Shown: positions 6,193 to 57,368, numbered from the stretch's first letter. The stretch: 64,000 nt of DNA from an uncultured Bacilli bacterium (GCA_910578855.1 CAJTRV010000001.1:1430-65429); one strand, 5' to 3'. The notes: a model not told the origin generated them from the sequence alone. A program made the numbers and translations.

Positions 6193-7788
6193 TTGAAAGA
6201 TAAGAAAGATGAGAAACAAAAGACGAATTTTAAAGATTTCAAAATCATTGTTCAATATTTAAAAAAACGAAAATTAAAATTATTTATGTATTTATTACTA
6301 GTAGGCGTAACGATGTTACCAGACGCTTTTGGACCGTTGCTATGGGGATTGGGACTAGAAGCTTTGGTTGCTAAAGATATGGCAATGTTTTGTTGGTATC
6401 TGATTGGCTATCAGACCATTCATATATTAGCTTATTCTATTTTAATGTCTCCTCGTCAGCGATTATATAATGATTTAGAACTTGAATTTACGAAAAATAT
6501 AACCAAGGATTTATATATTAAGGTTGATCAATTACCAGCGCGCGCGTTTGAAGAAATAGGGGTTGGAGAATTTATCAATCGGCTATATAACGATCCTGAA
6601 CGAGTGATGAGTTTATTAAATAAGATTATTCAACTTACTTTACGAAGTATTGTTGCTATTTTTGCCGTTATCTTAGCATTTTCTATTTCCTTAGTTTTAG
6701 GAATTGAAGTGATTATTTTTGGATTTCTAATGGGCTTGATATCATATCGATATTTTCCTAGAATTAAAAAAATTCAAAGAGAAATAAAACAAGAGTCAGA
6801 TGCCTATGTAAAGAATGCAACCGAGAATATTACCGGAATTAGAGAAATAAAGTCTTTGGGAATTAAAAAGAATATTGAGAAATCGTTATTTCAGACAGTG
6901 GATCAATTATTCCATAATTCTAAGAAGAGTGCAAATAATGAAATGGATTATTATTCGATAAACAATGGACTATATTACCTATTACAATTTGTTATTATTT
7001 TAACATGTGGATACTATTTTATCGAGGGCCATATTGCTTATACGTTATTTATCATGATGCAAAGTTATATTTGGCGCATTGATTCCGTGGTAGAAAGTAT
7101 TAGTGATTTTGGTGTTAACTTTAATAAAGTAGCCGTGTCACTTAGCCGAATGAATGATATTTTACAAAATCGATTATATCCGGATGAGACTTTTGGTGAT
7201 GTTACTTTAACGGATCCAGTTGGTTATGTTAAGATGAAGAATGTAAAATTTCGCTATAGTGATGAAGAAGATTATACGTTGAAGGGATTAAATTTGGATG
7301 TGATGCCAAATAAAAAAATTGCTATCGTTGGACGTAGTGGTAATGGAAAGAGTACGATATTTAATTTATTGTTACGTTATTTCGATGCAACTAGTGGAGA
7401 GATAACGATTGATGATATTCCTATTCAAAATTTAACGGAAGAATCATTGCGTCATAATATTTCCATTATTCGCCAAACACCATTTTTATTTAATATGTCA
7501 ATTTTGGATAATTTTAGATTGGTAAATCCAAAAGTAACCTTAAAGGCTGTTAGAGAAATATGTAAGAAAGCATATATTGATGATTATATTATGGGTTTAC
7601 CAAAGAAATATCACACGATTATTGGAGAAGGTGGGGTCAATTTAAGTGGTGGTCAAAAGCAACGATTAGCCATTGCTAGAACTTTGTTATTGAATACAAA
7701 GATTATCCTATTTGATGAGGCAACAGGAGCATTGTTTAAATCCAAAAAATATAATAGTTGTAATTTAAGGCCTTTATATTCCTTATAA
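6193..7788 (+). CDS. ABC exporter (fused 6-TM permease + ATPase). The reading frame is interrupted at the Walker-B/D-loop by the integrated element. Codons after about 7724 are element-derived.
   Basis: TMD followed by NBD with Walker A GRSGNGKST, signature LSGGQKQRLAIAR and Walker B ILFDEAT. The ORF then reads GALFKSKKYNSCNL...stop instead of the canonical SALD D-loop. The missing 3' end is found at 57143..57368. Confidence 0.8.
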   Translation: MKDKKDEKQKTNFKDFKIIVQYLKKRKLKLFMYLLLVGVTMLPDAFGPLLWGLGLEALVAKDMAMFCWYLIGYQTIHILAYSILMSPRQRLYNDLELEFTKNITKDLYIKVDQLPARAFEEIGVGEFINRLYNDPERVMSLLNKIIQLTLRSIVAIFAVILAFSISLVLGIEVIIFGFLMGLISYRYFPRIKKIQREIKQESDAYVKNATENITGIREIKSLGIKKNIEKSLFQTVDQLFHNSKKSANNEMDYYSINNGLYYLLQFVIILTCGYYFIEGHIAYTLFIMMQSYIWRIDSVVESISDFGVNFNKVAVSLSRMNDILQNRLYPDETFGDVTLTDPVGYVKMKNVKFRYSDEEDYTLKGLNLDVMPNKKIAIVGRSGNGKSTIFNLLLRYFDATSGEITIDDIPIQNLTEESLRHNISIIRQTPFLFNMSILDNFRLVNPKVTLKAVREICKKAYIDDYIMGLPKKYHTIIGEGGVNLSGGQKQRLAIARTLLLNTKIILFDEATGALFKSKKYNSCNLRPLYSL

Positions 7789-7866
7789 TAATAAATAAAT
7801 TAATATCTATTGATATAGAAATAAATCTATATCTTTTTTTATTACAAAAATATTTGTCAAAAAATA

Positions 7867-8763
7867 ATGAAGGGGGTTGATAAAATGACAAATGAAATTA
7901 TAAAAGTAGGAACTTTTTTTAGTGGAATAGGATCACCAGAAAAAGCTTTAGAAAGATTAAAAAACGAAGGACATATAAAAGATTATAAAGTAGAATTTTT
8001 TTCAGAAATAGATAAAAATGCAATTAAAAGTTATTGTGCGATTCATAATGTAGATGAAAGTTTAAATCTTGGTAGTATAACTGATATTAAAGGTAAAAAT
8101 TTACCATACTGTGATTTATGGATTGGCGGCTTTCCATGTCAAGATATATCTTGTGCTGGTAAAATGAGAGGATTTGATTTTACAAGTTCTACAAGATCAT
8201 CACTTGGTTGGGAAATGATTAGATTACTTAAAGAAGTAAAGATAAAACCTAAATATGTTATATTTGAAAACGTAGCTATGATAACAAGCAAGAAATTTAA
8301 GGAAACATTAAACTTATTTAAAGAAGATTTAGTAAGTTTAGGATATACATTATATGACCAATTATTAAGTGCTACTGATTATGGAATACCTCAAACTAGA
8401 GCGAGGTATTTTTTAGTTGCAATACTAGATAATCAAAAACAATTTAAATTTCCAGACAAAATGGAAAGTGATGTTATATTAAAGAATTTTCTTGAAGAAT
8501 TTGTTGATGAAAAATATTATTTAACAAATTCTAATTATATAGAAAAGGGCAATAAAAGGATATTTAAACATAAAAATAGAAATGATATAGAGTATGAGAT
8601 TGATATGGATAAATATTTAATTGGTGGTGTATGTGGAATAGATAAACATACTAAATTTGCAATCTCATCAAGGTTATTTTCTATTTATGGGAATTCGCCA
8701 ACTTTAACAGCAAGTAATACATCTGATAATAGCAAAATTGTTGTAGAAAGTGAGGTAGAATAA
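7867..8763 (+). CDS. DNA (cytosine-5)-methyltransferase, N-terminal/large part (motifs I-VIII + start of TRD)
   Basis: FSGIGS (motif I), EIDKNAIKSY (II), GGFPCQDIS (IV), ENV (VI), QTRARYF (VIII). Confidence 0.8.
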   Translation: MKGVDKMTNEIIKVGTFFSGIGSPEKALERLKNEGHIKDYKVEFFSEIDKNAIKSYCAIHNVDESLNLGSITDIKGKNLPYCDLWIGGFPCQDISCAGKMRGFDFTSSTRSSLGWEMIRLLKEVKIKPKYVIFENVAMITSKKFKETLNLFKEDLVSLGYTLYDQLLSATDYGIPQTRARYFLVAILDNQKQFKFPDKMESDVILKNFLEEFVDEKYYLTNSNYIEKGNKRIFKHKNRNDIEYEIDMDKYLIGGVCGIDKHTKFAISSRLFSIYGNSPTLTASNTSDNSKIVVESEVE

Positions 8764-8933
8764 TGAGAATAAGAAAACTTACTCCAAGAGAAACTTGGAG
8801 ATTAATGGGATTTAGCGATATAGACTTTGATAGAGCAAGTAAAGTATGTACTGAAACGAATTTATATCATCAGGCTGGAAATTCTATTGTAGTTAATGTA
8901 ATGTATTCGATTTTAAAAGAATTATTAAAATAA
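8763..8933 (+). CDS. DNA (cytosine-5)-methyltransferase, C-terminal small part (motifs IX-X). Separate frame, overlaps the upstream stop as TAATGA.
   Basis: MRIRKLTPRETWRLMGFSDIDFD (motif IX) and GNSIVVNV (motif X). SD-like gaggtag 7 nt upstream of the ATG. Too short for the ORF track (57 codons). Confidence 0.7.
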   Translation: MRIRKLTPRETWRLMGFSDIDFDRASKVCTETNLYHQAGNSIVVNVMYSILKELLK

Positions 8934-8940
8934 AAAGATG

Positions 8941-9204
8941 CTATTTTGCATCCTTGTTATTCTCCATAAGTTTTTCATAACCATCAAAAAATTTTCTAAT
9001 GTCAAAATTATATTTTTGAGATAAAAAGAAAAGGGTATCTAGTGAAATTCCTGTATCTACATTAGGACTTTCAATGTGAGATATAAAACTTCTACTCATA
9101 TCTGTATCTTCTGCCATTTTTTCTTGAGACTTACCAATTATATCTTTTCTTATGGATTTCATATTTTGTCCTATAAGGGCGAAAAGTTCATAAGTATTTT
9201 TCAC
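8941..9204 (-). CDS. XRE-family helix-turn-helix transcriptional regulator
   Basis: SQEKMAEDTDMSRSFISHIE HTH motif. Small. Convergent/adjacent to the methyltransferase. Confidence 0.6.
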   Translation of the reverse strand: MKNTYELFALIGQNMKSIRKDIIGKSQEKMAEDTDMSRSFISHIESPNVDTGISLDTLFFLSQKYNFDIRKFFDGYEKLMENNKDAK

Positions 9205-9346
9205 AAAAATCCCTCCTATATATAATTTTATAGGAAATATTGATTTTATACTGCTCTCTTATAAGGAGCAATTTTATTGCTCGGTATTAACAGTTTTGTG
9301 TTATAATTAAGTTGGCACGAAAAAAGAATACTTTAAATTGTATTCT

Positions 9347-9610
9347 TTATCGCCTAGGAATACGACGATTTTCAATATTTTTCCTTTTCTCAAATAATTG
9401 GAAAAGTTCAACATTAAGTGTAGTCGCGATGTGATCAATATAGTCGATTCTAGTATTTCTTTTAGCATTTTCCAAATTAGATACGTAAGTAGGTGTAGTT
9501 CCAAGCTTATCTGCAAAATCTTCTTGGGACCAACCATTTTGCAATCTATAGTAAACAATATTATTTGCTAAAATATTACGAGCACTTGATTTTAATTTAA
9601 TTGTCATCAC
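9347..9610 (-). CDS. XRE-family helix-turn-helix transcriptional regulator
   Basis: WSQEDFADKLGTTPTYVSNLENAKRNTRID is a classic HTH_3 pattern. Confidence 0.65.
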   Translation of the reverse strand: MMTIKLKSSARNILANNIVYYRLQNGWSQEDFADKLGTTPTYVSNLENAKRNTRIDYIDHIATTLNVELFQLFEKRKNIENRRIPRR

Positions 9611-9771
9611 ATCCTTCCTCTTACTTACTACTATTGTAATAAGTTTATGAAAATTGAACCATACTAACTATGTAGTAAGTTATTTAAATTATAGTGAATT
9701 AAAAAGGGAAAAAATGTTGGATTTTGTGCTAAAACAAAAAGGTAGATATTTTATAAGAAAAGGAGCTAGAT

Positions 9772-10260
9772 ATGAACAAAGAAAATTTAAATAGATATGT
9801 TAAAGAAATATCTGATGTTTTAGACGACAAAATTAAAATTATTACTTCAATTGAATATTACTATGATTTAGAAAAACTAGCATCTTCACTAAAAGATTTA
9901 TCTGATACCGAAGCTGAAAATGTTTTAGAACAATTAATCAATGAAAAACTAGAACAAATTAAGACAAGTGGTAAAGCAGATAAATTTAGAGAAAATAATA
10001 GACTTGTGGATGATGTAACTGAATTCTTCTATGAAAATAAGGAAGAAGATGTTGCCATTGTTGAAGAGGGAAGTTGCGTAGCAACAGATTTAATTTTAAA
10101 AACAATAGGTATAAATGGTAGAAAAATTGAATTACCAGTAAAGATTTCATATATAAAGGAATATTGTATAAGTAATATCATTGAGGAAAAAGATATAAGG
10201 AAAACGTTGTTGTGGATAGTTTTAGAACTATCAGTTGTAAGTTATTTTTTAAATAATTAA
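9772..10260 (+). CDS. Hypothetical protein
   Basis: ORF with RBS aaaggagc. No recognisable motif. Confidence 0.35.
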   Translation: MNKENLNRYVKEISDVLDDKIKIITSIEYYYDLEKLASSLKDLSDTEAENVLEQLINEKLEQIKTSGKADKFRENNRLVDDVTEFFYENKEEDVAIVEEGSCVATDLILKTIGINGRKIELPVKISYIKEYCISNIIEEKDIRKTLLWIVLELSVVSYFLNN

Positions 10261-10386
10261 AAATAATATATATAAGTAGTAGTAATTAGCAGTACCTGAA
10301 TCTACCTTTTTCAAGACACTTCTAATTCTATGGAAGTGTTTTATATTGTTAGTAATTTAAATTTATATAGATAAGGTTGTGATTTT

Positions 10387-10974
10387 ATGTTACAAGTTAG
10401 TAGAGCAAATAATCTTAAAATTCCAAAAACAATAGAAAATATTAGTGGAAATTTAAATAGTGTTGATGATAAGGTTGCAGTAAAACAAGCAATAGCTACA
10501 GCAAACAATCAAAAATTTGATAAGAAAAAAGTAAAAGAAAATGAAGAAAAGGATATGGAATTAGAAAGAATAGAAAAAATTCCATTTAATGCAAATGATT
10601 TAATGGTTATCACTGTTGTAAAAAAGCTAGGTGCTTATATAATTGCTGTTACTGAAAAATCTCCAGCTAAATATAGAGGTGTATTTGTTAATCGTATGCA
10701 AAATCTATCTTTAGAAATACTAGAATTACTTCTTCAAGCTAACTTTGTAAGAATTGATAGTTTAGATAATAAGAAAAAGAGAGAAGAATATCAAAAAGAT
10801 GCAATAATAAAATTAAAAATGTTAGGATATATAGCTATGGTGGCAGAAAATTCTAAATGTATATTATCTAAACAGTTTAAACAAATTTCGATTCAAATTG
10901 GTGAATCTATTAATTTAATAGCTGCTTGGAAAAAAAGCGACGATAATAGATGGAGTAGTCGTACAAATAATTAA
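10387..10974 (+). CDS. avd: Avd-like four-helix-bundle accessory protein of the DGR (possible true start at internal Met near 10555)
   Basis: C-terminal region KDAIIKLKMLGYIAMVAENSKCILSKQFKQISIQIGESINLIAAWKK resembles the Avd / 'S23 ribosomal-protein-like' four-helix-bundle family (LxxLGYI...EIGKML pattern). Basic. Located immediately upstream of TR-RT. Confidence 0.45.
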   Translation: MLQVSRANNLKIPKTIENISGNLNSVDDKVAVKQAIATANNQKFDKKKVKENEEKDMELERIEKIPFNANDLMVITVVKKLGAYIIAVTEKSPAKYRGVFVNRMQNLSLEILELLLQANFVRIDSLDNKKKREEYQKDAIIKLKMLGYIAMVAENSKCILSKQFKQISIQIGESINLIAAWKKSDDNRWSSRTNN

Positions 10975-11065
10975 AGGATTTTAAACCGAAAGGTTTTTAA
11001 TTAAGTAAATAATTTATTCTAGCGGCTTTACTTGTGTTGCGCCTTTGGCGCAGGGCTTTGTATTT

Positions 11066-11144
11066 GTCCGCGCGGTCAATAAGAATGGTAATAGGAACAA
11101 CAAATATAGGTATAAACGCAATGGTGCTGTTCGCCCAGATTTGC
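11066..11144 (+). repeat. DGR template repeat (TR)
   Basis: 79-bp near-identity to 12682..12760. Differs at 12 positions, all adenines in this copy (AAT/AAG/AAC/AAA codons). Confidence 0.85.
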
Positions 11145-11353
11145 TTTTGAAGAGATTTAATAATCTAAAAAACAGGTCAGAGAAATATATTTTAAGTAAA
11201 ATATATCAGAACTTTAAAGCAAAGGAATTATTTACTTTTCTAACCGCTATAATAGTGCGGTGGATAAATTTTTAACACCCACACAAGCAACGATAAAAAT
11301 ATCTTTGCAAGTTATAAGGGGTGTTTTTTTATTATTTATGGGGAGGATTTTTT

Positions 11354-12382
11354 ATGAAATTAGAAGAGATATTTACATTTGAAAATATATATAATGCCCA
11401 TAAAAAATGTAGAAGATCAAAACAACATAAAGGAGAAGTAATAAGATTTGAAGTAAATATTTCTGAAAATATTTGCAAATTACAAAAGGAAATAATATCA
11501 AAGAAATATAAAGTAGGAAAATATAAGGAATTTATAATATATGAACCAAAAGAAAGATTAATACAAGCTCTTCCATATAGAGATAGAATTGTATTAAGAT
11601 GTTTTTGCGATAATGTTTTAATTCCAAAGATTGAAAAAAAACTAATAAATGATAATGTTGCTTGTAGAAAAGGTAAAGGAACAAAATATGGAATGGATAG
11701 ATTGAAATATTTTTTACAAAAAGAATATTTTAAGAATAACGATAATAAAGTTTATTATTTGAAATGTGATATTCGTAAATATTTTCCTAGTATTAACCAC
11801 AATATTTTAATAAATAATCTAAAAAGGATTGGCTTTTCAGATGATGAATTTTGGTTTATAAACAAAATTATAAATGAACAACCTGATAATTTAGAAAAGG
11901 GTTTAGCATTAGGAAATCAATCAAGTCAATGGTTTGCTTTATATTATCTTGATAAAATTGATAGATTAATCAAAGAAAAACTTAAAGTTAAATGTTATGT
12001 TAGATATATGGATGATTTTATTTTAATTCATCGTGATAAAAAATATCTACAATATTGTTTGAAAATAATTAATAAAGTTTGTAATGAAGAATTAAATTTA
12101 GAACTTAATCAAAAAACTCAAATTGGTGTTGCCTATAATGGAATTGATTTTCTAGGATTTAATCATATTTTGACTGATAGTGGTAAAGTTATTAGAAAAC
12201 TTAGATTTTCATCTAAACAAAGAATGAGAAAACATATTAAAACTATAAAAAAACTTAAAGATAAATCTATAATTGATGAAGAATATGTTGGTATGAGAAT
12301 AAATGCTTTCAAAGCACATCTAAAATATTCTAATGAAAAAAGTATGGATAAATTATTATCAAATTTAGATAAAAACCTATAA
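11354..12382 (+). CDS. Diversity-generating retroelement reverse transcriptase
   Basis: RT motifs LKCDIRKYFPSINH (motif 3) and YVRYMDDFILI (YxDD). DGR-specific LGNQSSQ (I/LGxxxSQ in place of the group II intron QGxxxSP). About 340 aa. No maturase or endonuclease domains. RBS ggggagg precedes ATG 11354. Confidence 0.85.
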   Translation: MKLEEIFTFENIYNAHKKCRRSKQHKGEVIRFEVNISENICKLQKEIISKKYKVGKYKEFIIYEPKERLIQALPYRDRIVLRCFCDNVLIPKIEKKLINDNVACRKGKGTKYGMDRLKYFLQKEYFKNNDNKVYYLKCDIRKYFPSINHNILINNLKRIGFSDDEFWFINKIINEQPDNLEKGLALGNQSSQWFALYYLDKIDRLIKEKLKVKCYVRYMDDFILIHRDKKYLQYCLKIINKVCNEELNLELNQKTQIGVAYNGIDFLGFNHILTDSGKVIRKLRFSSKQRMRKHIKTIKKLKDKSIIDEEYVGMRINAFKAHLKYSNEKSMDKLLSNLDKNL

Positions 12383-12447
12383 AATTCAAAAAATAGTAAT
12401 AAAAAAATGAATTTATATGGTAAAATATAACTGTGGTGATGATTTAA

Positions 12448-14373
12448 ATGTATAATAATCAAGATTTAACTTTATTGTCGGAAGGACAAATTTGGGGGAA
12501 TGGTAATGAAGCCCAATTAGAAGTAATTAGAAAATATGGAACTAAGGCAGCAATTACAGATTTATGTGTTTTGACTGGTAGCTATTTATGTGAAGATACG
12601 GATTATAATATAGATGAAGATAGTTCATTAAAAGGTAGAACTAGTTGGTTTTGGACTAGATCTGATGATAATGACAATGATGTCCGCGCGGTCGATCGGG
12701 ATGGTACTAGGGACCACGAATGTAGGTATGAACGCATTGGTGCTGTTCGCCCAGCTTTGCAATCTTCTGTAATCTTTTCTCAAATCTCCCCGAACAGAGT
12801 GAGGGGATACAACGGAACTGAAGAAGTAGAATATGGTGAATATCCACAATATGCTGCTGATTCAAGAATGCAAAGTATATTAGAATCAGAATATAATAGG
12901 GGAATGAATAAAACAGGAAGAAGTTATACTTTTGATTCAGTAAAATATGACGATTATGATACTGGCTTTAAACCAGTGACTTATGAAGAATATGAATATC
13001 AAGGAAAAAAATATATTCGCATAAGGGCAAATTCTGATTTTGGTGGAAATAAATTTAAACTTTCAAATGGTATTGAATATAGAGATGGTGATTATGTTTG
13101 GGTAGAAGTATCACCTGTAAAATGGTTAATTGATGATAGAACAGGAATATTAATTTCAAAAAGAGGATTAGTTTCTGGAATAAGATTTCTTGATAAAAGA
13201 ACTAATTATAAAGGTGATTTTAGTAGAACAGAAATGAAGGAATATCTTGATAGATATATGATACGCGATTTAACTCAGACAGCAACATTTACTCGTGTTC
13301 AAGATATGACACCAGAAGAAAAAGCTCAATTTGAAGAAGAAAGAAAGCAAGCTGAAAAAAGAAGAAATCCTTATGGTTTAAAATTTGGACAAGTTAGTGA
13401 AGAAGAAATTATTAAAGGTGCAATAGAAAGTGGTGTTGCAGTATTCTTACATGGGCCTTCATCAGAAGGTAAATCTGCAAGAGTAAAGCAAATAGATCCT
13501 ACTTGTGAAATAATATATCTTCGTAATGCTACACCAGAAAGTTTAAATGGTAAAAGTGTATATAATCAATCAACAGGTGAGATGATGGATGTTCCACCAA
13601 CTTGGTTAAAGAAATTACAAGAAAAATGTGAAAAGGAACCTGATAGACTTCATGTAGTATTCTTTGATGAAATAACAAATGCACTACCTAGCATTCAAGG
13701 TATAGCATTTAATATAGTATTAGATAGAGAAGTTAATGGTATATGGAAATTGCCAGATAATGCTAGAATCGTTGCAGCAGGAAATGATATGAAAGATTCA
13801 TTAGCTGCAAATCAATTAGCAGAACCATTATTTAATAGATTTGCCCATGTTTATATTAAAACAACTACTGAGGGTTGGTTAAAATGGGCAAGTGAACATA
13901 ATATACATCCTGCTATTTACTCATATATTGCTTATAAAAAGGGCGAAACATTAAGAAGTAAATATGATGGTGAAAAACCTAACGCAGATCCAAGAAAATG
14001 GGAAATGGCTTCAAAAATGTTATATGCAACAGGAAGCCCTGAAATGTTAAGGGCGTTAGTTGGAGAGGATATTACAAGAGAATTTGTAGAATTCTGTAAT
14101 CAACAAGTTATAACATTAGATGATGTTATAAATGGAAATTATACCGATAGAGATATACAGGCATTAAATACTGCTGAAAGATATGCAACAACTATGGGAT
14201 TATCACAAGTTGATGATAATAACTTAGAAAAAGTAAGGGGTTTTGTTGCAGGTTTAGGAGCAGAGTTTGGAGCAATTTTTGATGCTTTATGGACACATGG
14301 CGATGAAAGTAAATTGGAAAGACTTGCAGAAGCAAAACTTGCTGAAATGCCAGGAGGAGGTATAAGAAGATAA
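12448..14373 (+). CDS. DGR target protein: N-terminal C-type-lectin-like variable domain fused to a MoxR/AAA_5-class AAA+ ATPase
   Basis: VR-encoded SWFWTRS...VRAVDRDGTRDHECRYERIGAVRPAL matches the DGR CLec consensus (WW.RS ... GVRP). The C-terminal half has Walker A LHGPSSEGKS, Walker B HVVFFDEITNA, sensor-1 RIVAAGN and PLFNRFAHVYI (the MoxR 'ALLDRF' motif). No signal peptide. Confidence 0.8.
   Translation: MYNNQDLTLLSEGQIWGNGNEAQLEVIRKYGTKAAITDLCVLTGSYLCEDTDYNIDEDSSLKGRTSWFWTRSDDNDNDVRAVDRDGTRDHECRYERIGAVRPALQSSVIFSQISPNRVRGYNGTEEVEYGEYPQYAADSRMQSILESEYNRGMNKTGRSYTFDSVKYDDYDTGFKPVTYEEYEYQGKKYIRIRANSDFGGNKFKLSNGIEYRDGDYVWVEVSPVKWLIDDRTGILISKRGLVSGIRFLDKRTNYKGDFSRTEMKEYLDRYMIRDLTQTATFTRVQDMTPEEKAQFEEERKQAEKRRNPYGLKFGQVSEEEIIKGAIESGVAVFLHGPSSEGKSARVKQIDPTCEIIYLRNATPESLNGKSVYNQSTGEMMDVPPTWLKKLQEKCEKEPDRLHVVFFDEITNALPSIQGIAFNIVLDREVNGIWKLPDNARIVAAGNDMKDSLAANQLAEPLFNRFAHVYIKTTTEGWLKWASEHNIHPAIYSYIAYKKGETLRSKYDGEKPNADPRKWEMASKMLYATGSPEMLRALVGEDITREFVEFCNQQVITLDDVINGNYTDRDIQALNTAERYATTMGLSQVDDNNLEKVRGFVAGLGAEFGAIFDALWTHGDESKLERLAEAKLAEMPGGGIRR
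12682..12760 (+). repeat. DGR variable repeat (VR) inside the target gene (codons about 79-104)
   Basis: Matches TR 11066..11144. Substitutions occur only where TR has A (a->g/c/t). Confidence 0.85.
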
Positions 14374-14765
14374 TGGAAAATAAAAAGGAAATATTATTGT
14401 CATATATAAGGACAAATGTTGCACCAATATTAGTTGATTTTATATCTGGTAAAGATTTGAATGGTGCAGTAGTATTGCCTGCTAATGTTGATGTTAAAGA
14501 ATTAAATGGTCATTATGATGGAGCAGATTTTATGCCACCAAAATGGCTTAATGAGATATTAAGTACAAATGCTAGTAAAATATTAGTAATAGATAAAATT
14601 GATACTATTTCAAAAGAAGAACAATTAAAATTTTGTGAATTATTAGAACATAGAAAAATATCTACATTTGAATTACCAAAAAGTTGTGTGATAATTGTAA
14701 CAGCAAACGAAATAAATAAAGATAAGATAAACGAAGAAATATTCTCATTAGTTGCACGAATTTGA
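14373..14765 (+). CDS. AAA-like domain fragment protein (Walker-B/sensor-1-like motifs, no Walker A). Translationally coupled to the DGR target.
   Basis: TAATG overlap at 14371-14375. KILVIDKID (hhhhD), CVIIVTAN (sensor-1-like). No GxxGxGKS. Confidence 0.4.
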   Translation: MENKKEILLSYIRTNVAPILVDFISGKDLNGAVVLPANVDVKELNGHYDGADFMPPKWLNEILSTNASKILVIDKIDTISKEEQLKFCELLEHRKISTFELPKSCVIIVTANEINKDKINEEIFSLVARI

Positions 14766-14775
14766 GGTATAAATT

Positions 14776-16386: not shown

Positions 16387-16518
16387 TTAAGGTTTGGGAC
16401 AAATAGTTCTAAATCTTTTTAATTTTGTAATTCACCTTTATATATAGGGAAAATTAATATTTTGTGTTATAATTAAATTGTACGATTAGGGCTTATTAAT
16501 TATAGGTATATTAAAGGA

Positions 16519-46382: not shown

Positions 46383-46391
46383 GGGGGTAGT

Positions 46392-47183: not shown

Positions 47184-47306
47184 TGAGTAATAAAATCTTA
47201 CTTGAAATTTCAAATTTTTGTGAAACATGTTCTTCTCATGAAAATTGTCCTGAAGAAGAATGTGTTTTATATCGAATTGAAAAAATAATATTAAAGGGGG
47301 AGAAAG

Positions 47307-49568: not shown

Positions 49569-50226
49569 TAAAACTGAGGGTTTTGGTATGAGTATATTAG
49601 TTATAGATAGAAAAACAGTTGATGAAAGTATAAGTAATCGTGAAACTTTAAGAGAAGCTAAAGTTGCTTATGAATATATTAATAGTATCTTAAAATATTC
49701 AGATGTTAGAATGGATAAAGAAACTGTAAAAGAACTAGAAAATGCTACTGACATTTTAAAAGATTTATATGAGTGTACATATTCTACTACTTATGATAAC
49801 GAAGATAAAAAAGAACAACTATTAACTGATTGTAGTTGCCCTGATTGTCATAATCAACTTAGTGTAAGTGATTTAATAGATTATTCATATACTTGCAATA
49901 ATTGTGATAAGAATTTATATGATTTTGAAGTTGATTCAGAAAAGGTTTGGTATTTAGAGGAGACAAGAGAATTAATATCTCCTCTTTTTGTTGGCGAAAG
50001 TAAGATCAGAGTTGTTCCAGAACCAATATTAAATAAATATATAGATTGTTGGTCTAAACATGAGGAATTACCAATTAAAGATGATTTATTGTATTGTAAA
50101 ACTGATAATAAAATAATAGCTTTAGATAACAGCAGTGGTGATTGTTGGGTAGAAGAATTTGATAATGAAATAGATGCTAAAAAATGGCTTCTAGGAATAG
50201 AAGAGTGTAGTGAAATGGAAATATAA
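49528..50226 (+). CDS. Hypothetical Cys-containing acidic protein (likely start at Met 49588; ends ...CSEMEI)
   Basis: ORF. CSCPDCHNQ...CNNCDKN zinc-ribbon-like Cys pairs. Confidence 0.35.
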   Translation: MIEKILNQKTLKYNKTEGFGMSILVIDRKTVDESISNRETLREAKVAYEYINSILKYSDVRMDKETVKELENATDILKDLYECTYSTTYDNEDKKEQLLTDCSCPDCHNQLSVSDLIDYSYTCNNCDKNLYDFEVDSEKVWYLEETRELISPLFVGESKIRVVPEPILNKYIDCWSKHEELPIKDDLLYCKTDNKIIALDNSSGDCWVEEFDNEIDAKKWLLGIEECSEMEI

Positions 50227-50244
50227 ATAAAAGGGGAGTTAGAA

Positions 50245-51267
50245 ATGAAGTTTAAGGGGAAAATTAAAAAATTAAATCATATTGTTTTATCAGATCCAAG
50301 TTATGAAAAAGGTATCTGGTGTAGATATGAAAAAGATAATTTAAATGAAAAAGATTGGCTAGTAAATATTGACATATATACAGTTGAAACTGATATAGGT
50401 GATTATAAAGTAAAAGGTACAGAATTCTTTTTGCTTTTACAAAAAGATAAAGATGATTGTGAATTGGATGATGAAGGTACTTTAAATTATCTAAAAAGTA
50501 TTGAACTAAAAGATTTTACAATTGGAGTTGATACAGCATGTGTAGCACTTGGAATTAATGATTATGCTAAAAAAATAATAAATTCTAAAGATGAATGGCA
50601 ACCTTCTTGTGCTATTAGAACAGGCGCAGATGGTACATTTGGAGAAGTATCAGAAGGAACTAAAAATGGAGAATTAAGATTTTTACTAATTACTGGTTAT
50701 TTTAGTGAAGATATATGTAATGAAAATGAACTTTTTGAATATTTAAAAAAACAATTTGAAATAACTGATTTGATAAAGGAAGATATAACATTAGATGGTG
50801 ATGATAGAAAATTAAATAAAGGTGATAAAGTTGAAGTATCATCTTGTGCAATTACTAATGATGTTGGTGGAACTACTGTGATAAGAAATTTTAATTATGC
50901 TAGTGAAATTGATGATATGAATTTAACTATTGAAAATCCAGATGGTACAATTGAACATACTACTGTAGAATCACATGACAAATTAGTCGGTTCTCCAATA
51001 GAAATTGAAGTTATTGATGGATTCTATGATTATGAAACAGGTTATAATTATAAAGGTAAAATTAATGATGAAAAGTTAATTGGAGAATTTAAAAAAATTG
51101 GTACAACTGGATTTACACCAGATGATTATAAAAAATATGAAAATAAATCTCTTTATGAAGATGCTTTAAAAGCTAGTAAAGATTATGATCCATCAATTGT
51201 ACATTTTTCAGAGTTTGATGTTATTAAATTACTAGAAAAAGGTACAGATAAAGAAATGGAGATGTAA
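50245..51267 (+). CDS. Hypothetical acidic protein (ends ...KEMEM)
   Basis: ORF with RBS aaaggggag. Confidence 0.35.
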   Translation: MKFKGKIKKLNHIVLSDPSYEKGIWCRYEKDNLNEKDWLVNIDIYTVETDIGDYKVKGTEFFLLLQKDKDDCELDDEGTLNYLKSIELKDFTIGVDTACVALGINDYAKKIINSKDEWQPSCAIRTGADGTFGEVSEGTKNGELRFLLITGYFSEDICNENELFEYLKKQFEITDLIKEDITLDGDDRKLNKGDKVEVSSCAITNDVGGTTVIRNFNYASEIDDMNLTIENPDGTIEHTTVESHDKLVGSPIEIEVIDGFYDYETGYNYKGKINDEKLIGEFKKIGTTGFTPDDYKKYENKSLYEDALKASKDYDPSIVHFSEFDVIKLLEKGTDKEMEM

Positions 51268-51269
51268 TT

Positions 51270-51896
51270 ATGAGCTATGAAATTGTAAAGAGTATTAGTC
51301 AGAGAAAAAAAGATAATAAAATATTTATAACCAGTGCATCTAATAATGTATGGCCTAAAAGTTATTCGAGATGGGAATATATGCCTGATAAGTCATATAG
51401 TGAAGATGAAACTAAGAATAGAGAATTATATTTGTTTCATGGAATCATAGGTGGAAGTTATCAATTAAGTGGAAGTGTTAGTGAAAATTGGAAATATGCA
51501 GAAAACAAATTTAATGAATACTGCAGAGATAATAATATAAGTTTCTCTGATTTGTGGGAATTACCCTATGAAAATGGTGAAAGAAATATAGAATTATTAA
51601 AACCATATTATGAGATATTCAAAGGTTTTTTGGAAGAGAAAAAAGAAGGAAAATATTATCTAGATTGTGATTTAGGAATTATTACAAAAGTAAATAGCAA
51701 AAGCTTTGATTATATACCTTATAATGTTCCAGCAGAAAGATATTGTAAAAGTTTTAAGAAAACCTTTAATGATTATTGCAATATTTCAGAACAAAATAGA
51801 AAAAATCTAAATATTCAAATTAGGGAATATGTTTTAGAAAAAAGTATAGATGATTCAACTGAAACATTCAAAGATAATATGGAGCTAGTAATATAA
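51270..51896 (+). CDS. Hypothetical protein
   Basis: ORF, coupled to VirD4 (TAAATG). Confidence 0.35.
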   Translation: MSYEIVKSISQRKKDNKIFITSASNNVWPKSYSRWEYMPDKSYSEDETKNRELYLFHGIIGGSYQLSGSVSENWKYAENKFNEYCRDNNISFSDLWELPYENGERNIELLKPYYEIFKGFLEEKKEGKYYLDCDLGIITKVNSKSFDYIPYNVPAERYCKSFKKTFNDYCNISEQNRKNLNIQIREYVLEKSIDDSTETFKDNMELVI

Positions 51897-54200
51897 ATGG
51901 ATAGTATTAGGTTTGATTCAATAAATTCTATTGAGATGTTTATATTAGTATTAGTTCTTTTTGCTATATTCTTTATTTTATTTTTAGAACCTAGATTGAA
52001 TAAAAGAAAATTAGAAAACAAAAATGAGCATGGTTCTAGTAAATTTGCTGATATGAAAGAGATAGAGAAAACTTTTGTTAAGGAAGATATAAATAATATT
52101 AATAGTGTAGGTTTTCCTGTATGGTATGAAAAGAAAAATGGAAAATTTGAAAGTGTGTATTTTGATGATAAAAGTCCACACTATTTACTTATAGGTTCTA
52201 CTGGAAGTGGCAAATCTGCAACGGTTGTTATCCCTGAATGTTTTATGTTTGCAACAGCAAAGGAAAAACATAGTGTAGTAGTAACAGATCCAAAAGCTGA
52301 AATTTTTAATGCAACTAGTAAGGTATTTAAAGATAATGGTTATGATGTTATTACAATAGATTTTAGAAGTCCAAATAAATCTAATAAAATAAATATAATG
52401 CAACCAATTATAAATGAGTGGAAAGAGTATTGTCGTTATAATGAGATAATGCTTTTTCTTTTTGCTCATTTTATAAAAAATAATAGGATTAAGTTAGACA
52501 ACTGTAATGATAAAAAATATTTAAATAAGATAAAGGAAAAGTATAACTTAGAAGATTATTTGATAGATATTATAAATAATAATAAAGATGATATTAATGA
52601 ATTTATAAGTGATAAAAAAATATATGAAAAGGATTTTTTTAAAGAAAATATTGAAAATAATGTTTCGTTAAAAGAATATCTATTATCTAAATCAAATGAA
52701 GAGATAATATTGATGATAAGAGAATATCAAAATTTAAGTTCAAAACATCAGGCTGAATCTAATAGATTAGTTATATCTTTGGCAGATTTAATATTTGTAG
52801 ATAACGATACCAACGATAAATTTTGGATTAATAGTGCAAAGCAATTATTCATAGGAATATGTGGTATATTTTTAGAAGATTATCAAAAAGGATTAATTTC
52901 AGAAAACAAAATTAATATATCTAGTGTTAAAAAGTTTCAAAATTCATCTCTTATAAAAGAAAATCAAACATTTCTACAAAGGAATGTTAATAATCGTAAA
53001 TATGGTAGTTTATCTAAAGATTATTTAACTTCTATACTTTCAGCTGCTGAGAACACTTATAAATCAATAACTGCTGTTTTTGGAGAAAAAATGGCTATAT
53101 TTGATGATTTAAATGTAGAAAATGTTACTAGTTCAAATGAATTTAATTTTACTGATTTAGGTAGCAAACCGACAGCATTATATATAATTGTTCCTGATGA
53201 AGATCGTGCATATTTCCAATTAGTAACAATTATTATTGGTATGCTTACAAAAGATTTAACTAGATTTGCAAATTTACCAGAAAATAAGGGAAAATTGCCA
53301 ATAATGGTGGAGTGGATTTTAGATGAATTTGCGAATTGTCCTCAACTAAATTCTATCCAGACCTTAGTCTCAGTGGCCAGAAGTAGGCGGATGAGATTTC
53401 AATTTTTCATACAGTCCTATGGGCAGCTTTCACAAGTTTATGGTAAAGATGTAGCTAGTATTATTCAAGATAACTGTGCGTTAGTGTATCTAAAAACTAA
53501 TACGGTTGAGACTGCTGAAATAATTGCAAAAAAACTCGGACGAGCTACTGTAGAAACTAATTCAATGAGTAAAAGTACAGATCCAATGAAGGTTGGCGCA
53601 AATAAAACTATTTCATTAATGGGTAAAGAATTATTAACTGCAACTGAAATAATCGCTTTAAAGTATAAAACAATTATATTTCCAACTATAAGTAATCCAA
53701 TATTTAGAGATACTTATATTTATAGTGATTTATTTCCACAATTTAAAAAATTGGAAGGTATAGAACGTGAAACAAAGGTATTAAAGAGAGTAACTAGTAA
53801 TTATTATACAGTTGAAGAATTAAAGAAAAGTTCTGAAATAAAAAATGAAAGAGTTTTAAAACAAACAACAAAGAATATACAAGATAAGTTTAAACAAGAT
53901 ATTCAAAAAGAAATTAATAGGGCTACAAAAAAAATTGAACCAACTTCTGCTGATGAAGAAATTATTGATAATGATATTATGAATGATTTAAAAAATAAAT
54001 TATTTGTTAAATATGATGTTTCAATAAATAAAGGTACTGATTCTTATAGTTTATTAATCGATAAAGTTATAAATAAAATGGAAATAAAAGAAATAGAAGA
54101 TTATGCAAAAACAAATTATAGTTTTGGAGTGTCAAGAAATTTAAGTAAAGGTACTACTAAAATTACAATTTGGGAAAATTCAAAGGAGAAAAAGATATGA
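51897..54200 (+). CDS. Type IV coupling protein (VirD4/TraG/TcpA-like ATPase) with N-terminal TM anchor
   Basis: N-terminal hydrophobic helix, Walker A LLIGSTGSGKSATV. About 770 aa. Confidence 0.7.
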   Translation: MDSIRFDSINSIEMFILVLVLFAIFFILFLEPRLNKRKLENKNEHGSSKFADMKEIEKTFVKEDINNINSVGFPVWYEKKNGKFESVYFDDKSPHYLLIGSTGSGKSATVVIPECFMFATAKEKHSVVVTDPKAEIFNATSKVFKDNGYDVITIDFRSPNKSNKINIMQPIINEWKEYCRYNEIMLFLFAHFIKNNRIKLDNCNDKKYLNKIKEKYNLEDYLIDIINNNKDDINEFISDKKIYEKDFFKENIENNVSLKEYLLSKSNEEIILMIREYQNLSSKHQAESNRLVISLADLIFVDNDTNDKFWINSAKQLFIGICGIFLEDYQKGLISENKINISSVKKFQNSSLIKENQTFLQRNVNNRKYGSLSKDYLTSILSAAENTYKSITAVFGEKMAIFDDLNVENVTSSNEFNFTDLGSKPTALYIIVPDEDRAYFQLVTIIIGMLTKDLTRFANLPENKGKLPIMVEWILDEFANCPQLNSIQTLVSVARSRRMRFQFFIQSYGQLSQVYGKDVASIIQDNCALVYLKTNTVETAEIIAKKLGRATVETNSMSKSTDPMKVGANKTISLMGKELLTATEIIALKYKTIIFPTISNPIFRDTYIYSDLFPQFKKLEGIERETKVLKRVTSNYYTVEELKKSSEIKNERVLKQTTKNIQDKFKQDIQKEINRATKKIEPTSADEEIIDNDIMNDLKNKLFVKYDVSINKGTDSYSLLIDKVINKMEIKEIEDYAKTNYSFGVSRNLSKGTTKITIWENSKEKKI

Positions 54201-54805
54201 AGAAAATAGGAATATGTTTAATAACAATTGGTATTACAATTTTAGGATTTTATTTTATATATAATAATGCTATAAATAAAAGGAATAATGAAAATGTTGA
54301 AGATTATATTAATGATACTTCAATAGTTAATGAAGTTGAAACAGAAGAAACAATTAATGAAGAAAAAGAAACATCTAATACTCAAAACAGCAATAACATT
54401 GCTTATACAGCTGTTTTAGAAATACCTAAAATTAATTTAAAAAGGGGAGTAGTGGATAGTACAGAAAACTTTAAATCAATTAATTATGCTATTAGTGTTG
54501 ATAAAAATAGTAATTATCCTAATGAAAAGGGTAATTTTATTTTGTATGCACATTCAGGAAATAGTTATATTTCATATTTTAGAAAATTAAATCAAGTAGA
54601 TATAAATGATGAAGTCTATGTTTACTACAATGGAGTCAAATACCATTATATCATAGAAAATAAATATGATATTGAAAAAACCGGAAAAGCTAAAGTCATC
54701 AATTTAAAGGATAATAGATATATAACATTAATTACTTGCAATCAAGATAGAAAAGGTTATCAAATAGTTGTAGAAGGTAAGTTAATAGATTCTACAACAT
54801 ATTAA
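54197..54805 (+). CDS. Sortase-family transpeptidase (element-encoded; likely partner of the adhesin 27082..29865)
   Basis: N-terminal TM anchor. Catalytic His in ILYAHSG. TLITC (TLxTC cysteine motif). Confidence 0.65.
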   Translation: MKKIGICLITIGITILGFYFIYNNAINKRNNENVEDYINDTSIVNEVETEETINEEKETSNTQNSNNIAYTAVLEIPKINLKRGVVDSTENFKSINYAISVDKNSNYPNEKGNFILYAHSGNSYISYFRKLNQVDINDEVYVYYNGVKYHYIIENKYDIEKTGKAKVINLKDNRYITLITCNQDRKGYQIVVEGKLIDSTTY

Positions 54806-55073
54806 TATGAAAGGATAAAAAGGGGGATAAAATTATGGAAAGGAATAAAATAGAAAAAAAGATAAATAAAATTACTTATAACTGTGAATATGAATTAAAA
54901 ACAGACAAGCCAGATTTAACAAAAGATGATTTAATCAAAATTTTCAATCAAAAATATTACAATTATATAAAAAGAAAAGAAAATCGCCTTTTTATATGCT
55001 GTAATTTTGATTAAAATACGTTATAATTTATATAGGCCTTATATTACGACTAAAAATGAGGAGACGATTTTTT

Positions 55074-57113
55074 ATGAGTAATAAAGGAAATGAAATTGTA
55101 AGGGCGGTGTTATATCTAAGATTATCAAATGAAGATGAAGGAAAATTAACAAAAGAAGAAAAATCAGAGAGTATCAAAAATCAAGAAATGATGCTTAAAG
55201 ATTATGCTAAAGAGCAAGGTTATGAAATTGTAGGTATCTATAATGATGAAGATTGGTCTGGTGCAGATAGTACAAGACCAGAATTTAATAAAATGATAAA
55301 AGAATGTGAATCTGGAAATGTAGATGTAGTAATTGCTAAAACACAAGCAAGATTTGCAAGAGATATGGAATTAATTGAAAGATACATTCATGATAAATTT
55401 ATTGAATGGAATGTGCAATTTAAAACAGTTGTTGATCGTATAGATAATACCAAGAGAGAAACAAAAAAGACAAGTCAAATACTTGGTTTAACAGATGAAT
55501 GGTATTTAGAAGATACTTCTTATAATATTAGACAAACTTTTAAAACCAAAAGAGAAAATGGAGAATTTACTGGTAGTTTTGCACCTTATGGATATGCAAA
55601 AGATCCTGAAAATAAAAACCATTTAGTAATTGATCCTGTTGCAGCTGAAGTTATTAAAAGAATATTTAATGATTTTATAGGTGGTATGGGAATAAAAACT
55701 GTAGCAACTGCATTAAATGAAGATTTTGTTTTAAGTCCATTAGAATATAAATATATGAATGGATATAATTTACAAGTTCCATTTATAAATGATTATATGT
55801 TTTTTGAATCCATAAAAAAAGCAGGAATGTATAAGGTAAATGTTAATTATAAAAATGAAGAACGAAAAGTTTTACATAATTTAATTTCTTATAATATTTT
55901 ATCTGAAGATAGGAAAACATTTGATAATAAATGCAAAATTTATTTGAGACAATTTTCAGAAGATAGAATGAAGATTTATTATACAAAAGAAAAAGAAATT
56001 GATTATAATAATTTTAAAATTGAATTATGGAATGAATTAAAGTTAAATGAGCAATTACCTAATGATACAACTTGTATAGCAACATTGACTGAAACTTTAG
56101 ATCGTACACATTCAATTAACTATCAATTTGAAATTTTGTTAGAAGAGAATGTCAATCATAAGGAGTATTTTTTTGATATATTGCATGTTTCAAATGATGA
56201 AAAATCAGCTATTGATTATAATGTCATAATACGAAAAAAATATAAATGGTGTCAGCAAATGATTAAAAAAATATTGACTGATGAAGTTTATATAGGTAAT
56301 TTAGTACAATCTAAAACAACTAGTGTAAGCTATAAAAACAAGAAGAAAATTAAGAAAGATCCAAGTGATTGGATTCGTGTTGAGAATACTCATGATGCTA
56401 TAATTACTGAGGATTTATGGATAAAAGCACAAGAAAGATTAAAGGAAAGGTCAAGATGTGATAAAAATGGAAATTATAATCCATTTCTTCACAAGTTATA
56501 TTGCAAAGAATGTGGAAGAGTATTTACTAGGTCTGGAGATTGTGAACATATATATTATAGATGCAAAGATTTAATTGAAAAATATCATACTTGCGATAAT
56601 AGAAGTAGTATAAATAATAATGACCTTCATAGTTTAGTAATTGATGGTATAAATGAATTGCTTGATAATTTTTATAAAGATAAAGAGATAAATAATTTCA
56701 AAGAAAATGATATTGATAATGATTTATTTAAAGAAAAATTAGATTCTCTAAATAAAGAGTTAATTAGTATTGATAAGGAATTACAAACTAAAAAAACATA
56801 CTTTCAACGTTTATATGAAGATAGAGCAAATGGTCTCTTAGATACAGAAGAATATATGATGTTAAAAACAAAGTATAAGGATGATAGTGAAAGACTAGAG
56901 GATAGAGCTAAAAAAATACATGAAGAAATAGAATTATATAATACTAAAAAGAAAGTATTAAAAGGTAAGCAAAATATATTTAATAAATATAAACACGTTG
57001 AAAAATTAGATGTGGATATTGTTAGTGATTTTGTTGATAAAATTTTAATTGGAAAATTAGATAAAGTTAACAAGACTAGAGATATTAAGATTGTATGGAA
57101 TTTTAGTGTATAA
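55074..57113 (+). CDS. Large serine recombinase (integrase of the element)
   Basis: N-terminal resolvase domain with the catalytic serine in AVLYLRLSNEDEG. Recombinase + zinc-ribbon region (CKECGRVF...YYRCKD) and long coiled-coil C-terminus. Lies 28 nt from the deduced crossover site. Confidence 0.85.
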   Translation: MSNKGNEIVRAVLYLRLSNEDEGKLTKEEKSESIKNQEMMLKDYAKEQGYEIVGIYNDEDWSGADSTRPEFNKMIKECESGNVDVVIAKTQARFARDMELIERYIHDKFIEWNVQFKTVVDRIDNTKRETKKTSQILGLTDEWYLEDTSYNIRQTFKTKRENGEFTGSFAPYGYAKDPENKNHLVIDPVAAEVIKRIFNDFIGGMGIKTVATALNEDFVLSPLEYKYMNGYNLQVPFINDYMFFESIKKAGMYKVNVNYKNEERKVLHNLISYNILSEDRKTFDNKCKIYLRQFSEDRMKIYYTKEKEIDYNNFKIELWNELKLNEQLPNDTTCIATLTETLDRTHSINYQFEILLEENVNHKEYFFDILHVSNDEKSAIDYNVIIRKKYKWCQQMIKKILTDEVYIGNLVQSKTTSVSYKNKKKIKKDPSDWIRVENTHDAIITEDLWIKAQERLKERSRCDKNGNYNPFLHKLYCKECGRVFTRSGDCEHIYYRCKDLIEKYHTCDNRSSINNNDLHSLVIDGINELLDNFYKDKEINNFKENDIDNDLFKEKLDSLNKELISIDKELQTKKTYFQRLYEDRANGLLDTEEYMMLKTKYKDDSERLEDRAKKIHEEIELYNTKKKVLKGKQNIFNKYKHVEKLDVDIVSDFVDKILIGKLDKVNKTRDIKIVWNFSV

Positions 57114-57142
57114 GTAAAATTTGATATAAACAAAGCACCAAC

Positions 57143-57368
57143 GAGTGCTTTAGATAATGAATCACAAGAGTATATTAAAAAAACGATTGATGATTTAGTA
57201 AAAGATCATACGATAATTATCGTGGCCCATCGTTTATCGACGATTGTTGATGCTGACGAGATTAATATTATTAAGAATGGAAAATTAGAAGCAAAGGGAA
57301 CCCATCAAGAATTGTTACAGAATTGTAAAACGTACCAGAATTTATATATGACTGAATCTAACAATTAA
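57143..57368 (+). pseudogene. 3' fragment of the interrupted ABC exporter gene (D-loop/H-loop and C-terminus)
   Basis: Reads (T)SALDNESQEYIKKTIDDLVKDHTIIIVAHRLSTIVDADEINIIKNGKLEAKGTHQELL.... This contains the SALD D-loop and the H-loop (AHRLST) that the 5' part lacks. Confidence 0.8.

Follow-up and report, generated by a model that had tools for sequence, protein, structure and literature searches.

A probable integrative conjugative element with the motif codons of ABC transporter genes as its insertion target

Does a mobile element that integrates at defined sites recognise one particular gene, or something that many genes have in common? This question is raised by a 64,000-nucleotide stretch of DNA from an uncultured Bacilli bacterium (GCA_910578855.1 CAJTRV010000001.1:1430-65429), which was analysed as a whole and is called the window below; positions are counted from its first letter, and all annotated features are on the plus strand. 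In the window, an ATP-binding cassette (ABC) exporter gene is interrupted by an insert that had been predicted, from the sequence alone, to be an integrative conjugative element (ICE) brought in by a serine recombinase. We conclude that the insert is very probably an integrated, apparently intact ICE of this uncultured gut bacterium, with ABC-motif codons as its target. The element itself is an ordinary Firmicutes-type ICE with a serine integrase; what is new is the rule that defines its target.

The interrupted exporter gene and the attachment sites

An open reading frame (ORF) at 6193-7788 encodes a transmembrane domain, Walker A, the LSGGQ signature and Walker B (...KIILFDEAT), after which it continues into the element and, in the integrated state, ends at a stop at 7788 with the tail GALFKSKKYNSCNLRPLYSL. 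The exporter portion proper, i.e. the transmembrane domain and the nucleotide-binding domain through Walker B, occupies 6193..7724. The remainder of the gene is found directly 3' of the recombinase gene, where the frame from 57141 reads TSALDNESQEY...AHRLST... up to a stop (TSALDNESQEYIKKTIDDLVKDHTIIIVAHRLST...). This 3' fragment (57143..57368) contains the D-loop SALD, the H-loop AHRLST and the stop codon (57366-57368). The gene is broken at 7724|7725 on the left and at 57142|57143 on the right, and the dinucleotide AC is present at 7723-7724 and again at 57141-57142.

Joining 6193-7724 and 57143-57368 in silico yielded a single uninterrupted ABC ORF of 585 aa. An intact homologue of the rejoined protein is present in the database (P0001, 585 aa, 99% identity at 100% query coverage; Pfam ABC_membrane and ABC_tran), and its two contigs (L001 and L002), which come from a close relative, provide the empty site. 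In both, the gene is uninterrupted and contains the attB precisely as predicted, GATGAGGCAACGAGTGCTTTAGAT, and their upstream gene order (rimP-nusA-ylxR-deaminase-infB-DUF2207-rbfA-ABC) matches that of the window. Nucleotide identity to the window is 97.4-97.7% up to 7724 and 98.4% from 57139 on. The alignment jumps from 7724 to 57139, and since the two blocks overlap by 4 bp (CAAC), the insert has a length of 49,418 bp. On these contigs the ABC gene does not end near 7788, and their empty site restores the motif that had been predicted. Insertion exactly within the Walker-B/D-loop codons of an ABC exporter gene, as originally proposed, is thereby established. Since the insertion cuts the ATPase after Walker B, so that D-loop and H-loop are lost, the transporter is inactivated; excision would give back the exact ABC gene. 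The element (7725..57142) has a GC content of 25.7%, compared with 34.4% and 32.1% in the flanks, which agrees with the AT-rich interior noted before.

The empty site and the reconstruction also bear out the four attachment sites as they had been deduced. attL (7695..7754) is composed of the B arm ...TTTGATGAGGCA, the putative crossover AC (7723-7724) and the P' arm AGGAGCATTGTTTAAATCC..., and attR (57113..57172) of the P arm ...TTTGATATAAACAAAGCACCA, AC (57141-57142) and the B' arm GAGTGCTTTAGATAATGA.... The deduced attP is TTTGATATAAACAAAGCACCA-AC-AGGAGCATTGTTTAAATCCAA, the core of which (...AAAGCACCA-AC-AGGAGCATTG...) translates as K-A-P-T-G-A-L, and the predicted joint of a circular form would read ...AAACAAAGCACCAACAGGAGCATTGTTTAAATCC.... 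When recomputed, the quasi-palindrome of attP held: 16 of the 21 arm positions are symmetric around AC, as against 6.3 +/- 2.1 at random centres within the element, where only one position in about 49,000 attains 16. With the centre displaced by 1-3 bp, 5-8 positions remain symmetric. The element ends and the ABC genes are similar over only about 13 bp. The common core of attP and attB is CAAC, so that identity alone permits a crossover at CA, AA or AC. We chose AC because it is the symmetry centre of attP. In this respect the AC crossover of the original prediction is upheld, while the shared CAAC by itself would equally allow CA or AA. Taken together, the locus displays the att features of serine integrases, namely reconstruction of attB and attP, a shared core of CAAC only and a quasi-palindromic attP; the 2-bp cut would be in keeping with them.

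The presumed integrase is encoded by the last gene of the element (55074..57113), 28 bp from its right end. Its start is most likely the ATG at 55074, which is preceded by a GGAG ribosome-binding site and gives a protein of 679 aa, the same length as in homologues. Four Pfam domains score above their cutoffs, i.e. Resolvase (6.9e-21), Recombinase (PF07508, 1.4e-22), a zinc ribbon (PF13408, 5.4e-09) and DUF4368 (PF14287, 28.9 bits for a cutoff of 25), the last of which is not called in relatives of 65% identity. Among solved structures, the catalytic domain of TnpX (2mhc) is the best match (E 5.8e-16), and its catalytic serine aligns with that of the window protein (LYLRLSNED in the window, LYERLSRDD in TnpX). 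This identifies the protein as a large serine recombinase of the TnpX/TndX-like kind that possesses a catalytic serine, in line with the agent of insertion originally named. A viral contig collection contained no relative of it. Since the best relatives in a plasmid collection (Subdoligranulum) are just 35% identical, the recombinase has no named close relative there.

Junctions in other genomes and a proposed mechanism

Further junctions were collected from contigs with exact copies of six recombinase sequences (51-99% identity) and from genome and metagenome matches. All 21 distinct right junctions, including that of the window, read ...GCACCA-AC|N (GCACCAAC|N) and continue with codons for [G/S][A/N]LD; they stem from recombinases with no less than 65% identity to that of the window (65-99%; four of the six fetched sequences). 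An ABC H-loop (AHRLST, VTHN, VTHD, VSHE and others) follows 25-30 aa past each of them. Thus, the arm type seen in attR also adjoins 20 other ABC D-loop sites. Likewise, ...DE[A/P]T|GALFKS is found at each of the four distinct left junctions, the P' arm of attL being joined to three further ABC genes (L053/L054, L055 and L056). In all cases the recombinase gene is co-oriented with the ABC gene.

Close relatives of the element occupy different genes. A scan of one genome per species revealed a 97%-identical recombinase in a human-gut metagenome-assembled genome (MAG; L007), in which the element end is fused at the same codon to a gene for a MacB-like ATPase-FtsX fusion (...GCACCAAC|AGGTGCGCTAGAT, encoding T-G-A-L-D). 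An exact look-up of the first protein of the element returned the source contig of the window itself (L052, 99.99%) and two NCBI MAG contigs (L053 and L054), where the left end of the window (99.9% nucleotide identity) is fused to another ABC ATPase, ...LIILADEPT|GALFKS. The other two left junctions read ...ILLADEPT|GALFKS (L055) and ...IILADEPT|GALFKS (L056). Similarly, over 5 kb the right end found in L014 matches that of the window at 98.7%, but the ABC exporter gene around it is a different one. Since nearly identical copies (98.7-99.9%) occupy different sites, the element has probably moved recently.

The same picture emerges from single recombinase sequences. One exact sequence (P0143) is listed in 203 collection blocks, and the ten places shown, all on human-gut metagenome contigs, comprise nine different ABC genes; for another (P0130), seven different ABC genes are found among the places listed. 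The genes next to these sites vary (VanZ, TetR, response regulators, tRNA synthetases, MraY and others). As for the targets, they range from half-transporter exporters and stand-alone MacB/FtsX-type ATPases to ATPase-FtsX fusions and an ATPase resembling those of amino-acid importers (TSALDPLMVGEV). Their C-terminal fragments form at least five single-linkage clusters at 50% identity and differ in domain architecture. The recombinase cluster of the window (92-99% identity) alone occupies the window gene, L007, L014, L017, L053 and L056, so that a recombinase cluster of at least 90% identity is present in over three clusters of target genes. Because close relatives and even identical recombinases occupy many ABC genes, the target is a sequence motif and not the window gene. 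The original prediction had treated the site as gene-specific, a view that the 21 right and four left junctions contradict.

What these sites share was read from their arms. The logo of the B' arm from the 21 sites is N-G-G-N-G-C-N-Y-T-N-G-A-T, i.e. NGGNGCNYTNGAT, and has a 3-nt periodicity: it is the first two codon positions that carry the information, with hardly any constraint on the wobble positions. The B arms known from four sites terminate in GATGA(A/G)(C/G)CA. Next to the crossover, the P arm has the half-site GCACCA, and three of the four B arms have GAACCA; for the P' arm the reverse complement reads GCTCCT, and for most B' arms GCACYN. In 440 kb of fetched DNA, the two empty ABC sites were the sole occurrences of the full attB motif. 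Two contigs were set aside in this survey. L051, the sole match of the left-end pattern ACAGGAGCATTGTTTAAATCC among viral contigs, is an unrelated phage contig of higher GC content and a chance hit, and L013, a low-coverage contig with a truncated recombinase, is uninformative.

Two observations on the surroundings of the junctions may be added. Three contigs, independent of one another and of metagenome or MAG origin, stop at the junction or at most 25 bp past it (L006 at 6234, L022 at 3155, L021 at 3833), which fits branching of the assembly graph at insertions that are polymorphic in the population. In L024, L031 and L044, the sequence downstream of the junction belongs to MacB/FtsX-type ATPases that adjoin response-regulator genes. 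We read such occupied ATPases next to two-component regulators as BceAB-like peptide-resistance modules; because of this layout, the insertions may switch off peptide resistance of the host.

Serine integrases make 2-bp staggered cuts at a central dinucleotide, rotate their subunits and religate the ends. By analogy, it is reasonable to propose that the element enters by conservative site-specific recombination carried out by its own TnpX/TndX-like recombinase, with cleavage and strand exchange at the AC of a Thr codon. The attB is the DNA that encodes the Walker-B/D-loop signature hhhhDE[P/A]T-[G/S][A/N]LD rather than a particular gene, or, in DNA terms, GAYGAR-SCA-AC-N-GGN-GCN-YTN-GAY. In this DNA the codons for Pro or Ala (SCA), Thr (ACN) and Gly (GGN) create the imperfect palindrome CCA-AC-NGG, which suits the half-site GCACCA; the E-P-T-G-A codons (GAA CCA ACN GGN GCN) thus present an imperfect palindrome to a recombinase dimer. 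Wherever the Thr is encoded, the AC is invariant in the DNA. The attP of the element (K-A-P-T-G-A-L) is a quasi-palindromic mimic of the ABC motif. Since AC is not palindromic, the orientation of the insert would be fixed by it, with the recombinase gene facing the 3' ABC fragment. As every genome has many ABC ATPase genes, a landing site is expected in almost any host, and the cost of the insertion would be the knock-out of one, often dispensable, transporter. Excision may proceed without a separate directionality factor, as it does for TnpX. According to PMC5704250, which cites Lyras et al. 2004, TnpX excises and inserts without any other transposon protein.

More distant recombinases mark the limits of this targeting. 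P0204 (51% identity), P0167 (57%) and the recombinase of L008 (41%) are found in non-conjugative contexts with no adjoining coupling protein or sortase gene, and they abut genes with collagen-like Gly-X-Y repeats, not ABC genes. One such junction reads ...GCAAC|AGGTGCTACCGGACCACAAGG, i.e. A-T-G-A-T-G-P-Q-G, and G-P-T-G-P-T runs occur on the reverse strand as well. The collagen-like loci are L033-L036 (~5058-5190), L037-L039 (~5064-5130) and L008 (~3870-3930); L033 additionally has, shortly downstream within this region, another gene for a serine recombinase. As ABC targeting was not seen in these recombinases of 41-57% identity, the ABC specificity does not reach beyond the clade of at least 65% identity. 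The collagen-like sites and the ABC site have the core CCA-AC-NGG (Pro-Thr-Gly) in common, which suggests that the ABC specificity arose within a recombinase group targeting short coding repeats. For the broader idea that the DUF4368 clade has evolved att sites written in peptide-motif codons, as a general and evolvable strategy that has so far gone undescribed, we consider the chances to be about even.

Conjugation genes and cargo

The gene content of the element was assigned mainly by Pfam and NCBIfam matches, which confirmed most of the genes named before. A VirB4-type conjugation ATPase (33281..35758; Pfam TraG P-loop and AAA_10) and a type IV coupling protein of the VirD4/TraG type (51897..54200; T4SS-DNA_transf 3e-57, TraG-D_C, TrwB_AAD_bind) are encoded, together with an M23 peptidoglycan hydrolase (35758..36765; Peptidase_M23 1.8e-17) and a primase-like protein with CHC2 zinc finger and Toprim domain (41073..42041). 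A polytopic membrane protein (31309..32973) is VirB6-like; its matches to the NCBIfam models pLS20_p028, MMCAP2_0566 and Mbov_0396 (E 1e-14 to 1e-17) are all under the curated cutoffs, and this weak similarity points to the pLS20 and Mycoplasma ICE families. For the conjugation module, which had been labelled Tcp/CTn-like (MPF-FA) before, this was the sole resemblance to a typed system. The preceding gene (30915..31301) may encode a VirB2-like pilin of the type IV secretion system, with a weak score of 25.7 bits for a Pfam cutoff of 26.6. A single-strand DNA-binding protein (29944..30321; Pfam SSB 3.3e-20), an HU-like DNA-binding protein (45347..45622; Bac_DNA_binding 3.8e-33) and a surface adhesin (27082..29865) are also present. 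The adhesin has a thioester domain and six SpaA repeats, and its C-terminus (VPNTS, a hydrophobic stretch and KRKNKK) resembles a sorting signal.

Since integrase, VirB4, coupling protein and pore components are all present in the 49,418-bp insert, we regard it as an ICE, as had been proposed for an element of about 49.4 kb. Neither the Pfam scans nor a PHROGs scan of ten proteins that Pfam and NCBIfam had left unmatched detected capsid, portal, terminase or tail proteins, in agreement with the earlier statement that phage structural genes are absent.

The relaxase that had also been named is now a motif-level candidate. It belongs to a candidate relaxosome module (42957..44956) of two small ORFs, the second of which is ribbon-helix-helix-like (...RRSISLPVELDEII), and a 482-aa protein (43508-44956) that is strongly conserved and has invariant HPYY and LHxDRxxNYHFH motifs. 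One database protein (P0322, 535 aa, on a 2-kb ENA contig) consists of an ABC ATPase N-terminus (...LDEPIGGVDPAARSYILKTIM) fused to residues of the relaxase candidate from ~117. As the junction lies off the D-loop crossover and the contig is only 2 kb long, this fusion probably arose by chimeric assembly or by rearrangement, and it was discarded.

Between 37475 and 51896, at least ten consecutive small acidic proteins are encoded that end in E-[M/Y/L/I]-E-[I/L/M] before the stop (e.g. ...SEMEI, ...SEMEL, ...EEYEI and ...GELEI). Several of their genes overlap the next one by a TAATG or ATGA stop/start. The array could reflect translational coupling or a common C-terminal signal.

At the right end, the coupling protein gene is followed by genes for a sortase (54170..54805; Pfam 1.6e-19) and a 59-aa protein (54835..55014; 57-60 aa in relatives), the latter directly upstream of the recombinase gene. 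This order is kept in all ABC-targeting relatives whose loci extend that far upstream. No Pfam match was obtained for the 59-aa ORF; a role in directionality or regulation is possible.

The left part of the element carries cargo. Its first gene encodes a C-5 cytosine DNA methyltransferase (7867..8763; Pfam 1.6e-48). The methyltransferase region (7867-8933) is split into a 298-aa ORF (292 aa in some relatives) and a 56-aa ORF, both annotated as DNA_methylase, and the identical split was seen in all relatives (L052-L056). A diversity-generating retroelement follows (10387..14373), composed of a bAvd-like gene (10387-10974), a template repeat (TR; 11065-11144), a reverse transcriptase gene (11321-12382) and a variable repeat (VR; 12681-12760). 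All 12 mismatches between TR and VR are at TR adenines. The VR lies within an ORF of 641 aa (12448-14373), unusually near the N-terminus (aa 79-104), and the C-terminal half of the protein is an ATPase (phrog_1297, 1e-46). In the relative L055 (7178 and 8782), the TR is nearly identical and the VR differs, with a 1-nt insertion that splits the ORF; the retroelement has therefore been active. Further cargo (14776..24344) follows the retroelement, beginning with a DUF2201 metallopeptidase/VWA gene and comprises genes for an NT5C-nucleoside hydrolase fusion, a histidine phosphatase and HD, GNAT, HD_3/YfbR-like, LysR, radical SAM and NUDIX proteins. The region 16519-24344 has the appearance of a nucleotide-metabolism gene cluster, including the HD_3/YfbR-like 5'-deoxynucleotidase. 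Profiles for anti-phage defence gave only generic reverse transcriptase and methyltransferase matches on the cargo and none in 16519-24344.

Alternative readings and known systems

Could the element instead be a switch for the exporter, gene-specific and excised in a regulated manner when the transporter is needed, like skin in sigK or the comK prophage? The insertion is exact and in frame, so a serine recombinase that excised the element would leave a perfect gene behind, and one recombinase of only 65% identity (L025) resides in an apparent orthologue of the same exporter gene. However, the same element (98.7-99.9% nucleotide identity) and identical recombinases are found in many unrelated ABC genes, and no regulator tying excision to exporter demand is evident. 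Since the insertion site is generic, a dedicated switch, which the original prediction had entertained, is very unlikely. We consider it just as improbable that the recombinase is a transposase-like enzyme of low specificity, as TndX is in some hosts, that needs a short CCAAC core and hits ABC genes merely because they are abundant. It is true that the enzyme belongs to a DUF4368 clade termed multi-targeting, some members of which have relaxed, AT-rich preferences (PMC10083194), and that the wobble positions of the sites vary. Yet a 5-bp core is expected about 60 times by chance per 64-kb window, mostly outside ABC genes, whereas all 25 distinct junction halves (21 attR, four attL) share the same codon, motif and orientation. 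Moreover, conservation in the B' arm continues for at least 13 bp, and the full motif was confined to the two empty ABC sites in the fetched DNA.

A defective remnant, integrated once and now fixed in the lineage (e.g. for want of a relaxase), is an unlikely alternative to a mobile ICE. It would account for the split C-5 methylase gene (298-aa and 56-aa ORFs), the failure of profiles to recognise a relaxase and the lack of an observed circular junction. On the other hand, none of the large ORFs for conjugation and recombination is disrupted, the relaxase candidate, whose His and Tyr motifs are invariant, shows strong conservation, and near-identical copies reside at other sites in other genomes. 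The retroelement cargo has diversified between relatives, and L006, L021 and L022 break at or just after the junction, as is expected for polymorphic insertions. Finally, a prophage or phage-like element is hardly credible, although large serine integrases are common in phages, diversity-generating retroelements are often phage-borne, and recombinase relatives of 51-57% identity occur in non-conjugative contexts, some adjoining lysin-like genes. VirB4, coupling protein, VirB6-like and pilin-like proteins and the sortase/adhesin pair speak for conjugation; among the proteins tested, none matched capsid, portal, terminase or tail families in Pfam or PHROGs, and the recombinase has no relative in the viral contig collection.

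Several points weigh against the conclusion that the window holds an intact ICE aimed at ABC-motif codons. The junction sample is limited to the contigs described and is no exhaustive census, and B arms are known for four sites only. The empty site was taken from a related strain and not from the same population. The attB of the window is weakly symmetric (7 of 21 positions). A circular attP junction was not found. Neither profile nor fold searches of the element proteins confirmed a relaxase; self-transmissibility is therefore deduced from the other conjugation genes. In L050, a recombinase of 66% identity again adjoins an ABC D-loop (~5070-5100; GGCACCAAT|TGGGGCACTTGAT, CCAAT|TGG, encoding A-P-I-G-A-L-D), but with AT where all others have AC, at odds with AC as a crossover common to the whole family; being palindromic, an AT centre would not fix the orientation.

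If integration is indeed directed by peptide-motif DNA, this has consequences for both host and method. Dozens of equivalent sites would be available per genome in nearly every bacterium, which would explain how one recombinase sequence (P0143) comes to be listed in 203 collection blocks, and ICE-driven knock-outs of ABC transporters should be frequent in gut Bacilli. A natural serine integrase whose attB pre-exists in most genomes would be of practical interest for integrating DNA into non-model bacteria, and in genome engineering the motif could serve as a natural landing site of almost universal occurrence. In addition, the roughly 25 sites with free wobble positions provide a clean natural data set on how serine integrases read DNA.

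Integrases are usually described as gene-specific or nearly random; use of protein-motif DNA would be a third strategy. The known elements closest to that of the window are the clostridial Tn4451/Tn4453 (TnpX) and Tn5397 (TndX), whose recombinases belong to the same DUF4368-type subfamily. TnpX/TndX elements cross over at GA in loosely defined sites; of these, Tn4451 is small and mobilisable, whereas Tn5397 resembles Tn916. In contrast, the window element has an AC centre and a coding motif of a whole paralogous family as its target, and it is a 49-kb ICE whose conjugation module differs from theirs. Durrant et al. 2022 have classed a TnpX/TndX-like DUF4368 group as 'multi-targeting' (Cp36, Enc9, Pc01; PMC10083194). 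The window recombinase resembles that clade in occupying over three clusters of target genes, in its DUF4368 domain and in a long motif instead of one of 2-4 bp, and thus falls, in spirit, under the working criterion of these authors. Multi-targeting here, however, reflects conservation of a protein motif and not relaxed specificity, and ABC genes or a coding-motif target are not mentioned in the text and the available supplementary files of that study (PMC10083194). Full-text literature searches likewise returned no description of ABC-motif targeting.

Surveys of the serine integrases of ICEs list rumA, hsdM, mutT, traG, an adhesin gene and others as targets, and no ABC gene is among them, including the 18 streptococcal targets (PMC4701971, PMC3158075). 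Tn1549/CTn5-type and streptococcal ICEs are likewise Firmicutes elements in which one end harbours the serine integrase gene, the orientation relative to the disrupted target gene is fixed and the direct repeats are very short, but each of their integrases, unlike the window family, has a single target gene apart from occasional secondary sites. Precise and reversible insertion into coding sequence is also shared with skin in sigK, SPbeta in spsM and A118-like prophages in comK; there, a single gene is reconstituted in a regulated way, whereas the site of the window element is generic. The targeting logic itself is that of homing endonucleases, inteins and group I introns, which recognise codons of conserved catalytic motifs at positions 1 and 2, tolerate wobble changes and thereby gain a wider host range. 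Their enzymology is unrelated, and while those elements splice to restore the function of the invaded gene, the window element inactivates it.

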